A DNA stretch of 64,000 bases from Escherichia coli (lineage in GTDB: Bacteria; Pseudomonadota; Gammaproteobacteria; Enterobacterales; Enterobacteriaceae): NCBI RefSeq assembly GCF_050320075.1, contig NZ_CP190018.1. One strand, given 5' to 3'. The position numbers and the translations under genes were made by a program. Shown piece after piece: positions 10,459-39,126 of this stretch. Position 1 is the stretch's first letter, and each line of letters begins with the position of its first letter. The notes under the pieces are model-generated. The model made no database searches. It saw nothing but the letters and a program-made list of their open reading frames with translations, and had not been told where the DNA came from.

Positions 10459-12339
10459 TTAATACTCCGTCACGTTTTCCTGTCGCCACGCCTCGTCATA
10501 TTCCGATTTCGGCATATTGGCGATGTAGCTATATGGCGATCCTGATTCAAGTTGCAGGAACTGGTGCGATTGCTCGTCAAGGAACAACGGGACACCACCT
10601 TCCCAACCTTCGCCGTTACGTTGCTTTTCAAGCATCAAAACAGATGCCGGAGATGCCAGTAGCTGTTCGTCCTTCTCTGACATCCTTTCACCACTCTGAA
10701 CTCTCTGTAACGCTCTCTCGCGAGCCTTGTTACGCCAGATGATGAAAAGGTTGTCTGTCAGGTCTGTTATCGCTCCAGAGCCTTTTACGTCCATTTTCCC
10801 GGTTGGTTTTTCTTCGCTGTCACCTTTTCGCGAGTGAGTAACGAGAATGACGTGGGAGTTTGTTTTGTTTTTGAAATCGCAAATCGAGTCAACAAACGCC
10901 TTCTGCCCGTTATAGTCATCGTCGCCTATGCCACATTTCATCAGGCTGTCGATGATGAATAACTGGATGCCGTATCGGCGGCGAGCGTAGTCGAATATTT
11001 CGATCAGCCTGTCGGCTTTCGCCGTTCCGGTCAGACCAAACACCCAAAGTCTTTCGTCATAAAATTTAAATGCAGAGTCAATTTCCAGCACTGGCGGCAT
11101 CTTGCAGCACGTCGCCTGACGGGTAAGTCGTTTAAGGAGAATGCCTGGCTTCAGCTCAAGTGACGCGATGCACGTCTTCACACCCTGACGCATTGCCTCA
11201 AGTGCCATATGCCCGACAACCTCCGTTTTTCCGTGACCGTTCACACCATTGACCAGCGTCAACTCGGCCTCACGGAACTGGAATTTATCTGCCAGAGATT
11301 CCCACGGTGGATTAAACAGATACTGCTGCTTGCCGTAGAAAGCGTTGATAGTGTCCTGGTAAAACTCTCGCGCGCTGTAGAGTTCTTCAGGATCGAAGTA
11401 GGATGCCGTGCCGATGTACTGCCAGATTTCATCCTCGGTAACACCGTTCATCAGGCATTCGTTGATGTCTTTGTACGGCAGAGTAACAAGACGGCAACGA
11501 TGTTCACCGAGTCGGCTTGCGATTTCCCTTGCGGCTTCACGACCAACATCATCAACGTCCATCGAGATGAATATTTCCTCAAACCTGTCGAGGTTGTGAT
11601 ACTCAAACTCAATCCACTGTTGCTTAGCGCCTTTCCCGCCACCAAACGGCACGGATAACGCCGAGATGCCGTATTGCGCATAGCTCATACAATCAATTTC
11701 GCCTTCGCAAAGTACAACCGCCCTCACGCCAGCGTCCAGAGCCTGCCATCCGAACAGACAAGGTTCGCAATCACCCTCTGCCATAATGACTTTCTTCCCG
11801 TCCGGGCGCTCAGTGCTGATTCGCTTGACCTGCAACAACTCACCATCGCGTTTGTACGGAAGCACCAGTGCATCAAGTTCTCGTTCTCCATTCCACACCT
11901 TGCCGCTGACAACCTCGTAGCGCTTTACGACTTCTGGCGATATGCCACGCGATTGCAGGTACTCAAGATGGGATTCTGTTCTGGTAACGTAGCGGGCGAT
12001 TTTCTTGCGGTCAGGTCTGGAGAATTTCTTCTCACGTTTGGCATCGAAATGGTGATCGTCATCCTTGATTCCGAGAAAGGCTTTCGCTTCCTGCATAGCC
12101 TGATGCAGGTTAATTCCACGACATGCCATCCACAAATCAAGCATGTCACCGCCGTCTCCCTCAGCGAAATCAGCCCATTTTTTCTTGCCGCTAAGGTTGA
12201 CCTTAAGGCTGTTTCCCTTGTCACCGTTGACGTTACCGGCAACCCACTCATGCCCCTCTTTCTTGCCGTTTGGCAACAGGTGCGGAGCCACCCTGTCAAC
12301 CTGCGCCCAAAGCAGGTCGCTAAGTTCACTTGGCGTCAT
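10459..12339 (-). CDS. Bifunctional DNA primase-helicase (Toprim primase + DnaB-family helicase)
   Basis: 626 aa; Toprim-like CEGEIDCMS, Walker A GVNGHGKTE, Walker B LFIIDSL. Confidence 0.8.
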   Translation of the reverse strand: MTPSELSDLLWAQVDRVAPHLLPNGKKEGHEWVAGNVNGDKGNSLKVNLSGKKKWADFAEGDGGDMLDLWMACRGINLHQAMQEAKAFLGIKDDDHHFDAKREKKFSRPDRKKIARYVTRTESHLEYLQSRGISPEVVKRYEVVSGKVWNGERELDALVLPYKRDGELLQVKRISTERPDGKKVIMAEGDCEPCLFGWQALDAGVRAVVLCEGEIDCMSYAQYGISALSVPFGGGKGAKQQWIEFEYHNLDRFEEIFISMDVDDVGREAAREIASRLGEHRCRLVTLPYKDINECLMNGVTEDEIWQYIGTASYFDPEELYSAREFYQDTINAFYGKQQYLFNPPWESLADKFQFREAELTLVNGVNGHGKTEVVGHMALEAMRQGVKTCIASLELKPGILLKRLTRQATCCKMPPVLEIDSAFKFYDERLWVFGLTGTAKADRLIEIFDYARRRYGIQLFIIDSLMKCGIGDDDYNGQKAFVDSICDFKNKTNSHVILVTHSRKGDSEEKPTGKMDVKGSGAITDLTDNLFIIWRNKARERALQRVQSGERMSEKDEQLLASPASVLMLEKQRNGEGWEGGVPLFLDEQSHQFLQLESGSPYSYIANMPKSEYDEAWRQENVTEY

Positions 12340-12446
12340 GATTCCCTCAGATTGAGATTTTTAAACCAGAAATCGACAAACGAAATACTTAACCAGCCGT
12401 GGTTATAACCAGCGACCAGTAGCGATTTGATTTTTGATTTCATGGT

Positions 12447-13307
12447 TCACCTGTCGAAAAACACGTAGCCAGTTTTCGATACGGTGATTGCGGATGGTGG
12501 TTTGGATTGTGGTTGAATGGTTTCTGGCTTTTCGTCGTTCCAGCGCTGACCGTTCAGGTAGCTCGATGGTAACAACCTGTCGAATCCGAACTGCTTACCA
12601 TTCCTGCATGCGATGTCTTCTGCCAGCATCGTGGCAAACTCGCTTGCCGTACCCCTTGTAGTTTTACGCCATTCCCTGAACTGTGTTCTGAATGCCGAAG
12701 CCGCGTTTTTCTTCCCGGCTTTCCGCATGCCTGCACACCAGAATATTTCCTCGAATGCCTTGTCGGTTTCTTCGTGACGGTCAGGTGATTTTTCACACTC
12801 CGTCCGAACACTTTCGGACATAGTGTTTTTATTATTTCTTTTTTCTTTTGTAATAGTTTCTTTTGTGTGTCCCTGTTTTGGTGACAGCGCTGTCACCGTT
12901 TTGGTGACACTTTTTGTCACCAATGCAGTGACATTATCACCAGAGTAGTGACACCCTTCGATTTGCCATTCCTCGATGTTCTTGTTAGGCCCGATTTGCT
13001 GGCCTTCGCGAAGGATTACCTTCATCGCGATAAGCTCATTCTTGGCCTTGTTTACCTTCTGTCTTGGCAGCCTGGTAATTTGAGCTAACTGACTATCAGA
13101 GATGCGATCCATCTTTTTACCGTAGCCGTATGTTTTACGGCATATGGCGTGGGCAACCTTGCTCTGATTTTTCGTTAAATCTGCGCCGATAAGCTCTTCA
13201 TACAGGGCATTTGCAAGACGGGTATAACCATCTTCAACTTCTGCCACACGACGCTCCACAGGCCGTTGTGAAGACCTTAAATGTGTTACGGTTGCAAGAT
13301 TACTCAT
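12447..13307 (-). CDS. Replication initiator with lambda O-like N-terminal DNA-binding domain
   Basis: 286 aa; position after cII; iteron-like repeats inside its coding region. Confidence 0.7.
12850..12960. repeat. Candidate replication origin: iteron cluster with flanking A+T-rich tract inside the O-like gene
   Basis: Repeated GGTGACAGCGCTGTCACC, GGTGACACTTTTTGTCACC, GTGACATTATCACC, GTGACACCC units; adjacent tract ttattatttcttttttcttttgtaatagtttcttttgtgtg. Confidence 0.5.
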
Positions 13308-13439
13308 GACCTTTCTCCTTCTGCATCAGCTTCACTTTTTCCAACTCAGCCCGGAATCGACCAGGCTGCTTGAAGCTGGACAGGAAGCGATCACGTAGTA
13401 TGTGTTTGTGAATTTTGTCCTGGTAAGGACTGAGTTGTT

Positions 13440-13521
13440 TTGTCATAATTACTTCTGTGGATTGATCCAGTCTTTCTACATCAGGCCTCGAAGAATTCGC
13501 CGTTCTTCGGGGCTTTTTCTT
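13440..13521 (+). ncRNA. OOP-like antisense RNA candidate overlapping the 3' end of cII
   Basis: Plus-strand hairpin CGAAGAA-TTCGCCG-TTCTTCG followed by GGGCTTTTTCTTTT inside the last codons of minus-strand cII; promoter not confidently placed. Confidence 0.3.
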
Positions 13522-13762
13522 TTGTCAGGTAATCGGCAAGCCGCTTAGTCAATTCAGCCATTTCATCGTCTTCGATTCCGTATTCCAGAACAGCAAGCAT
13601 CATGCTTACCTGCGAGAAGAAACCATTCTTCCATCGGCTTACCTGATATTCAGGAACCCCCATTGCTCGAGCGAATGTCTTCTGCCCCATCAGTGCCAGT
13701 TTGTTCAGCAAGGCTGACTCGATGCGAGCCGCTTTCTTGCTTTTAGTTGCAATAGTACCCAT
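13481..13762 (-). CDS. cII: CII transcriptional activator
   Basis: 93 aa; [14 protein letters not shown]...SRWK...FSMLLAVLEYG matches lambda CII from memory. Confidence 0.85.
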
Positions 13763-23716: not shown

Positions 23717-23792
23717 TGGTGCCGATAATAGGAGTCGAACCTACGACCTTCGCATTACGAATGCGCTGCTCTACCAACTGAGCTATATCGGC
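23717..23792 (-). tRNA. thrW: tRNA-Thr (anticodon CGU)
   Basis: 76-nt minus-strand sequence GCCGATATAGCTCAGTTGGTAGAGCAGCGCATTCGTAATGCG...CGGCACCA with cloverleaf. Confidence 0.95.
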
Positions 23793-38835: not shown

Positions 38836-39126
38836 AAACCGGCTGAATGAAGGTGAGAATTTTAAAAGACCAGAGGAGTAAACGGGATTATTAATTGCTT
38901 ATTTGCATATTACTATTGAGGTTTCATAATCTTAGGAAATAAATGATACATGCGCTTTTCGGACTATTGAAAACTGCCCCTGTGCTAAATTTGTAAACCC
39001 TGCGCCGACAGGCTTGCGTAAAACTCTTTTGGTGATAATGTGAGCCTTCCCAATCCAGACTATTCCGATTTGGGATCCATTTTGCCGTCCTGGCGTGTGT
39101 AACCGTTTTATCAAGGAATAAGCAGT

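Follow-up and report, generated by a model that had tools for sequence, protein, structure and literature searches.

In phage lambda, the C-terminal domain of the initiator O binds P, P hijacks the host helicase DnaB, and DnaK, DnaJ and GrpE are needed to release P. For O and P, the design in which the N-domain reads the iterons and the C-domain contacts the helicase or its loader was established with lambda-phi80 and lambda-P22 hybrids. Plasmid iterons are direct repeats that lie outside the rep gene and serve copy control by handcuffing.

Several phage replication modules offer points of comparison with the locus studied here. The origins of the Stx phages 933W and P27 contain six iterons, and the extra copies, which lie on the N-domain side, lengthen O (PMC7466680). 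In P22 (gene 18/gene 12) and in phage L, the partner of the initiator is a phage-encoded helicase and not a loader (PMC8022706). The Eru1-3 replication classes of Stx phages include modules with an SF2 helicase and a Toprim protein and modules with an O-like protein and a DnaB-type helicase (PMC8044961). An O-like protein with a primase-helicase, as in the module considered below, is described in the genome paper of epsilon34 (PMC2629481). The N-domain of ES18 and epsilon34 is reported to be 94% identical to lambda gpO aa 17-148. The ES18 record (AY736146) carries a rep_origin 'similar to lambda ori' inside gp59, an O-like gene, followed by gp60 and by gp61, the last annotated as 'putative primase/helicase; similar to phage T7 gene 4'.

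Here, we analysed a 64-kb stretch of DNA (the window) that contains a repeat array inside an O-family gene. Comparison of the sequences makes it a well-supported reading that this element is a lambda-type phage origin with a different iteron specificity.

Results

The prophage and its O-family initiator

A P22/HK620-like prophage, ending at a tRNA-Thr(CGT) gene, occupies the left 23.7 kb of the window. It runs off the left window end at the portal/terminase genes, so that only part of it lies in the window; the rest of the window is taken to be host chromosome. Its replication genes are arranged as follows.

12447..13307, minus strand: O-family replication initiator gene, 286 aa, with Pfam PF04492 (Phage_rep_O) at aa 20-114
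12954-13307, minus strand: predicted N-terminal origin-binding domain of O, about aa 1-118
Minus strand, about aa 119-160: linker of O, encoded by the ori
12447-12839, minus strand: predicted C-terminal, partner-specific domain of O, about aa 157-286
12336..12443, minus strand: 35-aa ORF between O and the primase-helicase, homologue of ES18 gp60
10459..12339, minus strand: T7 gp4-like bifunctional primase-helicase, 626 aa

Upstream of O, the same strand carries a cII homologue together with a cro-like gene; a cI-like repressor gene is on the opposite strand.

The O protein scored 128.8 bits against PF04492, for which the gathering cut-off is 28.7 (E = 1.2e-37), and its N part matched PHROG 277 and 2365 ('replication initiation O-like'), while aa 157-286 matched phrog_33384. 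An AlphaFold2 model of the N-domain, built on a 10-sequence alignment, reached a pLDDT of 72.7 and has the topology H-H-(bridge)-H-H-hairpin. When this model was submitted to Foldseek, the best PDB matches were all winged-helix proteins (MarR, CRP, IclR and Sso10a), although they were weak (best E = 0.026, TM ~0.5); a PDB sequence search with O returned no relative and no solved O-family structure. In the N-domain alignment, the predicted recognition helix differs by class, reading VKRCNEAKLEL in lambda and ES18 and consisting of 11 other residues in the window. From the alignment and the model, we infer that the class-specific differences of the N-domain sit in this predicted helix.

The iteron array and the flanking elements

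Four 19-bp units of the form TGTCACC-N5-GGTGACA were found at 12868-12953. They start right after the coding part of the Phage_rep_O domain and lie between the regions coding for the N- and C-domains. The units are listed here in O-sense order, with mismatches scored on the + strand against TGTCACCNNNNNGGTGACA.

12935-12953, minus strand: iteron 1, furthest from the A+T tract; + strand TATCACCAGAGTAGTGACA, O-sense TGTCACTACTCTGGTGATA; 2 mismatches; translated CHYSGD, frame 0
12915-12933, minus strand: iteron 2; + strand TGTCACCAATGCAGTGACA, O-sense TGTCACTGCATTGGTGACA; 1 mismatch; translated VTALVT, frame 2
12891-12909, minus strand: iteron 3; + strand TGTCACCGTTTTGGTGACA, O-sense TGTCACCAAAACGGTGACA; 0 mismatches to the consensus; translated VTKTVT, frame 2
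12868-12886, minus strand: iteron 4, adjoining the A+T tract; + strand TGTCCCTGTTTTGGTGACA, O-sense TGTCACCAAAACAGGGACA; 2 mismatches; translated SPKQGH, frame 1; right half like that of lambda ITN4 (AGGGGGA)
12822..12867, minus strand: A+T-rich tract, presumed DNA-unwinding element; GC 0.15 at 12820-12859
12795..12826, no strand assigned: imperfect inverted repeat with 14-nt arms ACACTCCGTCCGAA / TTCGGACATAGTGT, 86% complementary

Within the 64-kb window, these four are the only sites with at most 2 mismatches to TGTCACCNNNNNGGTGACA, and all fall within 86 bp. At up to 3 mismatches, 11 sites were found against 2.09 +/- 1.41 expected, a count that none of 100 shuffles reached. A repeat search recovered the same direct and inverted families. 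Every unit has an inner spacer of 5 nt. Neighbouring units are separated by 4, 5 and 1 nt in the window and by anything from 0 to 5 nt in relatives. Because the inner spacer is constant and the gaps vary, the phase of the unit is TGTCACC-N5-GGTGACA. The initial annotation had rightly recognised four inverted-repeat units, but the phase in which it wrote them, GGTGACA...TGTCACC, bridges two neighbouring units and has to be replaced. It had also placed the repeats inside an O-like gene and beside an A+T-rich tract, and both placements agree with the Phage_rep_O match of the ORF and with the base composition given above. The span that it assigned to the origin, 12830-12965, covers the iterons fully and the A+T tract mostly, not wholly.

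In the ori region, Rfam gave no match and a promoter scan gave nothing above chance. Terminator-like matches in the array were rejected, as they are just the palindromes of the iterons with T-runs after them on the antisense strand.

Comparison with lambda ori

In O-sense, the region is collinear with lambda ori in the alignment. The start-to-start spacing of the iterons is 20/24/23, and the same values follow from the annotated lambda iterons at 39034, 39054, 39078 and 39101. Like lambda ori, the element lies inside the O gene, between the parts coding for the N- and C-domains, and has four dyad-symmetric iterons of 18-19 bp with an A-rich centre, AAAAC. As in lambda, the A+T tract lies on the promoter-distal side of the iterons with a dyad beyond it. 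The first 34 nt after iteron 4 are ACACAAAAGAAACTATTACAAAAGAAAAAAGAAA, of which 33 are as in lambda, and the inverted repeat at 12795-12826, promoter-distal to the tract, matches in position the dyad to the right of lambda ori. The inverted repeat is also present in ES18, where it differs by two changes; these are non-compensating and give no covariation support. The earlier proposal that the element mirrors lambda ori within O was borne out by its placement, its 20/24/23 spacing and the shared tract positions.

The N-domain of lambda O is 53% identical to that of the window. Several features set the two systems apart. The half-sites are TGTCACC/GGTGACA in the window versus TCCCTC/GAGGGA in lambda. 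The C-domain of the window O is unrelated to that of lambda by BLAST, and the partner is a T7 gp4-like primase-helicase in place of the DnaB-hijacking loader P.

Conservation of the repeat in relatives

One DNA motif is read in three frames across the four copies, as CHYSGD, as VTALVT and VTKTVT, and as SPKQGH, and the same frame pattern was present in 50 of 52 unique arrays. Since four copies are translated in three frames, it is the DNA that is repeated and not a peptide.

A pattern scan of viral contigs returned 120 loci. In 103 of these, at least 3 such iterons lie in an O-like ORF, giving 52-53 distinct arrays of 4, 5 or 6 copies; two others, L094 and L108, were rejected as family members because their GTCAC-type repeats are located in unrelated HTH proteins. 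Nearly all complete arrays end with the spacings 20, 24 and 23, L123 (29, 24, 23) being the sole exception, and the TGTCACC arrays of 5 and 6 iterons add spacings of 18 and 24. In an alignment of 72 distinct iteron sequences, positions 1-8 and 14-19 carry 1.3-1.9 bits of information, compared with 0.3-1.0 bits for positions 9-13.

We then considered a diverged set of 40 arrays whose N-domains are less than 80% identical to that of the window. Their identity to the window is 91% in the half-sites, 61% in the centres and spacers and 63% in the N-domain DNA, where it should be borne in mind that the pattern scan was ascertained on three exact half-sites, which inflates half-site identity. This ascertainment was corrected for with a second set of 80 loci chosen by protein similarity of the O N-domain alone. 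All 80 have 3-5 such iterons with the same spacing, and in each the array starts no more than a few bases from where the N-domain match ends. The initial annotation had named conservation in related phages as a check on the array, and the repeats are indeed kept there, at 91% in the half-sites against a background of about 62% and in 80/80 loci. This pattern of conservation indicates that the repeat is selected, and acts, at the DNA level.

Modular structure of the O gene

The O gene is mosaic, and its two parts join in the A+T tract and iteron 4. The C-terminal half (12447 to ~12880) is common to ES18, epsilon34, g341c and several Stx2 phages, all of which carry the primase-helicase, and the N-terminal half with the iterons (12835-13307) is common to the PhiR12 phages, which have a lambda C-domain and P. 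In PhiR12_1 to PhiR12_5, the N-half and the iterons are identical to those of the window. The breakpoints of homology fall in the zone of the A+T tract and iteron 4, the PhiR12 match extending from 12835 and the ES18 match up to 12880; the tract itself keeps a mean identity of 78% across the 40 diverged relatives. Judged by these breakpoints, the A+T tract is the apparent exchange zone between N-domain/iteron modules and C-domain/partner modules.

Neither lambda nor ES18, both with a lambda-class N-domain, contains a TGTCACC-type site; their iterons are of the TCCCTC type. On these comparisons, TGTCACC iterons evidently travel with one class of O N-domain. At the other end of the protein, the C-domain is linked to the downstream partner. 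The window-type C-domain stands beside a primase-helicase in 33/33 loci, the lambda-type C-domain beside a P homologue in 15/15 and the Proteus-phage-V3-type C-domain beside a DnaB-type helicase in 14/14, whereas other C-domains (a group of 27) are mostly found beside DnaC/IstB-like ATPases (representatives scanned were ORFs of 284 aa and 246 aa). Among the pattern-scan loci with downstream DNA available, the pairing of C-domain and partner is without exception. A single N-domain/iteron class is therefore joined to four partners, namely primase-helicase, P, DnaB-type helicase and DnaC-type loader. This is the pattern expected if the N-domain reads the iterons and the C-domain contacts the helicase or loader, which are the roles that it suggests for the two domains.

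The 35-aa ORF and the primase-helicase

The stop codon of the 35-aa ORF overlaps the start of the primase-helicase gene (ATGA). Its product belongs to PHROG 21848 (E = 4e-26), whose function is unknown in PHROG. The ORF is intact in all 14 distinct versions of primase-helicase-type modules, including the diverged L051, and nucleotide differences among near-identical versions are mostly synonymous. An accessory role is possible for this conserved protein.

The product of 10459..12339 is a fusion of a Toprim primase domain with a RecA-type (DnaB-family) hexameric helicase domain. Toprim_2 was matched at aa 209-296 (E = 3e-12), and AAA_25 and DnaB_C at aa 355-594, although of these two only AAA_25 beats the curated cut-off. 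The protein also matched PHROG 239, 'DNA primase/helicase' (E = 2e-171), and the PDB entries of T7 gp4 (5ikn, 6n7i and 1q57) with E = 1e-21 to 1e-23, the match over aa 191-539 having E = 3e-23; Twinkle was matched as well. No match to Phage_lambda_P (PF06992) was found downstream of O, whereas lambda P and the relative L055 do match this family, and there is no P, DnaC-like or DnaB gene beside O in the window. The initial annotation was thus correct in naming the partner a primase-helicase and not a lambda P-type loader.

The first 100 residues of the protein contain a single cysteine, so that it is without the Cys4 zinc ribbon of T7 gp4. In T7 gp4, this ribbon serves primer-site recognition, and the N-terminus of metazoan Twinkle, which is zinc-less, resembles that of the present protein. 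Because the ribbon is absent and the helicase homology is unaffected, a primase function appears less certain than a helicase function. By analogy with lambda, the primase-helicase is presumed to be the replicative helicase recruited by O.

Relatives and distribution

The O gene is 98.6-99.2% identical in DNA to those of mEp043, vB_EcoP-720R6 (720R6), Sf101 and SEN22, which have the same primase-helicase. A 181-bp ori segment is 99.4-100% identical in the four phages and 100% identical in mEp043. The plaque-forming phages mEp043, Sf101 and 720R6 have O, the 35-aa ORF and the primase-helicase at 98-99% identity to the window. Under the O matches, the records of mEp043, 720R6, Sf101 and SEN22 have no rep_origin feature; they carry an O or 'replication protein' CDS there, and the mEp043 stretch, inspected in full, likewise contains no rep_origin feature. 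The ori segment was found in 179 of 5426 complete E. coli genomes (~3%). The N-domain class of the window is a minority, with 17 of 356 O-bearing deposited phage records at least 60% identical. At 99% identity in the isolated phages mEp043, Sf101, SEN22 and 720R6, the module evidently works in live phages.

Discussion

Proposed mechanism and alternatives

We consider it very probable that the element serves a lambdoid (P22/HK620-like) prophage as its replication origin, follows the lambda plan and is used by O in the manner proposed here. This is the best explanation; the analysis shows the anatomy, the homology and collinearity with lambda ori, the half-site conservation and both linkages, of iterons with N-domain and of partner with C-domain. 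By analogy with lambda, dimers of the N-terminal, predicted winged-helix domain of O would bind the four 19-bp iterons within the O gene. The resulting nucleoprotein complex would wrap and bend the DNA and thereby destabilise the A+T tract of 45 bp next to the iterons, and the C-terminal domain of O would then bring in the replicative helicase, here through an ES18-type C-domain and a T7 gp4-like primase-helicase. The 35-aa protein could possibly help in helicase recruitment.

The repeats might instead be a by-product of a Val-Thr-rich (VTxxVT) linker in O and have no function as DNA. Iterons 2 and 3 do encode VTALVT and VTKTVT, and the unrelated HTH proteins of L094 and L108 also have VT-rich repeats, but iterons 1 and 4 lie in the other two frames, the frame pattern recurs in 50/52 unique arrays, and the half-sites are conserved at 91%, codon third positions included, when the intervening bases at ~61% do not rise above background. 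The geometry, moreover, equals that of the proven iterons of lambda, and we regard this explanation, which the frame analysis already contradicts, as extremely improbable. It is also highly improbable that the prophage is decaying and the element a relic without activity. The prophage runs off the left window end, and its completeness is not judgeable from the window; however, its O, 35-aa ORF and primase-helicase genes are intact, their identity to plaque-forming mEp043, Sf101 and 720R6 is 98-99%, and the ori segment is the same as that of mEp043 over all 181 bp.

A third explanation accepts the array as a true O-binding site but has the primase-helicase act independently of O, with O working through host DnaB. 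The T7 primary origin, at which transcription opens the DNA, is an example of a model for such independent action. A contact between O and the primase-helicase is predicted from their co-occurrence, the C-domain family phrog_33384 is without known function, and the 35-aa ORF may be a real adaptor or unrelated. However, the window-type C-domain accompanies the primase-helicase in 33/33 loci and in the sampled loci never stands beside P, a DnaB-type helicase or a DnaC-type loader, even though all four partners are found with the one N-domain/iteron class, and O has no P, DnaC-like or DnaB gene as a neighbour in the window. Such exclusive co-occurrence is what an interacting pair of O C-domain and primase-helicase would be expected to produce, and it parallels lambda, in which P is bound by the C-terminal domain of O. 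We therefore consider the independent action of the primase-helicase unlikely, and retain an O-directed lambda-type origin as the preferred reading.

A more specific proposal within this reading is that the ES18-type C-domain, perhaps together with the 35-aa protein, loads the primase-helicase directly, so that initiation would dispense with host DnaB, DnaC and DnaG as well as with the DnaK/DnaJ/GrpE step. We hold the chances of this proposal to be evenly balanced. The four partner classes on one N-domain/iteron class would form a ready panel for studying how the C-domain chooses its helicase.

The origin can now be annotated precisely in the prophage and in mEp043, Sf101, SEN22 and 720R6. TGTCACC-N5-GGTGACA and its candidate recognition helix make, with those of lambda, a natural pair for specificity swaps, and the coupling of C-domain and partner over four partner classes puts numbers on the modular design of lambdoid replication genes. 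The sole new detail is the iteron specificity TGTCACC-N5-GGTGACA, for which we found no earlier description in open-access text.

Comparison with known systems

The plasmid origins of pSC101, R6K, P1 and RK2 resemble the element in having clustered initiator-binding repeats beside an A+T-rich unwinding element. A plasmid-type iteron origin was nevertheless ruled out, as the units are palindromic and the array lies inside the initiator ORF.

The Stx-phage origins share with the window the lambda plan inside O, and forms with extra iterons also occur in the TGTCACC class. In contrast to the window, whose four iterons differ in specificity and go with a primase-helicase, 933W and P27 combine lambda-type iterons with O and P. 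Among the Eru1-3 replication classes, considered as a possible match, none consists of O with a gp4-like primase-helicase (PMC8044961). P22 and L are like the window in having an O-homologue initiator with repeats in its coding region; the N-domain of P22 is 50% identical to that of the window, and the prophage is otherwise P22/HK620-like. They differ in their repeats, which in L are six copies of an 11-bp sequence, and in their helicase, which is of the DnaB type without a primase domain.

ES18, epsilon34 and g341c share with the window the C-terminal half of O (92-95% DNA identity), the A+T tract, the right-hand dyad, the small ORF and the primase-helicase (~87% DNA identity). The difference is that ES18 and epsilon34 have a lambda-class N-domain with TCCCTC iterons, whereas the window has the other N-domain class with TGTCACC iterons. 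The layout, with a rep_origin at the homologous place, and the pairing of O with a primase-helicase are already annotated in ES18. Taken together, the origin is an ordinary one that follows the textbook lambda plan, in a module that has already been sequenced many times.

Small ORF and primase-helicase downstream of O

A short ORF lies between the initiator gene O and the T7 gp4-like primase-helicase gene.

12336-12443, minus strand: 35-aa ORF MKSKIKSLLVAGYNHGWLSISFVDFWFKNLNLRES, homologue of ES18 gp60; PHROG 21848, function unknown

Its stop codon overlaps the primase-helicase start (ATGA). The ORF was uninterrupted in all 14 distinct versions of the module, one of which is diverged, and the nucleotide differences among near-identical versions were mostly synonymous. 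The ORF therefore probably represents a real gene, whose product is possibly an accessory replication factor.

The primase-helicase itself (10459-12339, minus strand) has a single cysteine within its N-terminal 100 residues and therefore, unlike T7 gp4, lacks a Cys4 zinc ribbon. The N-terminus may resemble the degenerate zinc-binding domain of Twinkle. In some relatives the gene appears to be interrupted. Homologues in the Stx2 phages Min27, vB_EcoP_24B, Stx2a_F403/F451 and phiXuzhou21 and in the Klebsiella phage phiKp_30 (hits H61-H72) aligned in two pieces spanning ~2.9 kb, as against 1.88 kb, implying an insertion of ~1 kb inside the gene of those phages. Could this insert be a mobile element, an intein or a homing-endonuclease gene? 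Several of these records label the homologous gene 'P'. A different insertion was observed in L025 and L066, two viral-contig loci recovered by the half-site pattern scan, where a 165-aa ORF separates the 35-aa ORF from the primase-helicase.

Region from cII to O

Two features were found on the other side of O.

13483-13515 (region 13440-13525), plus strand: strong hairpin resembling a terminator, with a T-run after its 14-bp stem
13300-13446, minus strand: 48-aa ORF between cII and O, matching PHROG 1913

The hairpin lies opposite the cII 3' end, on the antisense strand, in the same position and orientation as the terminator of the lambda OOP antisense RNA; Rfam returned no family for region 13440-13525. 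The 48-aa ORF overlaps the start of O and has counterparts in P22 orf48, HK97 gene 53 and an mEp043 gene annotated as DUF2740. PHROG 1913 carries the label 'tail protein', which RefSeq records repeat and which looks like an annotation error.

Prophage boundaries

The prophage extends past the left end of the window, inside the portal/terminase genes. The phage-homologous region ends on the right at a tRNA gene, which is likely the attachment site of this P22/HK620-like prophage.

23717-23792, minus strand: tRNA-Thr(CGT) gene

Variation in iteron arrays

GTCAC-containing repeats also occurred in two unrelated helix-turn-helix proteins (loci L094 and L108, one from a high-GC contig), where they encode VT-rich linkers downstream of the helix-turn-helix region. 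These repeats suggest that initiator-gene-embedded origins with similar half-sites occur well beyond enterobacterial lambdoid phages.

Within the TGTCACC class, five iterons were present in L010, L022, L048 and others, and six in L052, L058, L059, L068, L070, L082, L088 and L096. The one or two additional units, which bring extra spacings of 18 and 24 bp, are placed on the side of the N-domain, and the O linker lengthens in step with them. Wherever downstream DNA was available, DnaC/IstB-like partners adjoin the six-iteron arrays, as they do most five-iteron arrays; L048 instead has a P homologue. These extended arrays parallel the six-iteron origins of the Stx phages 933W and P27.
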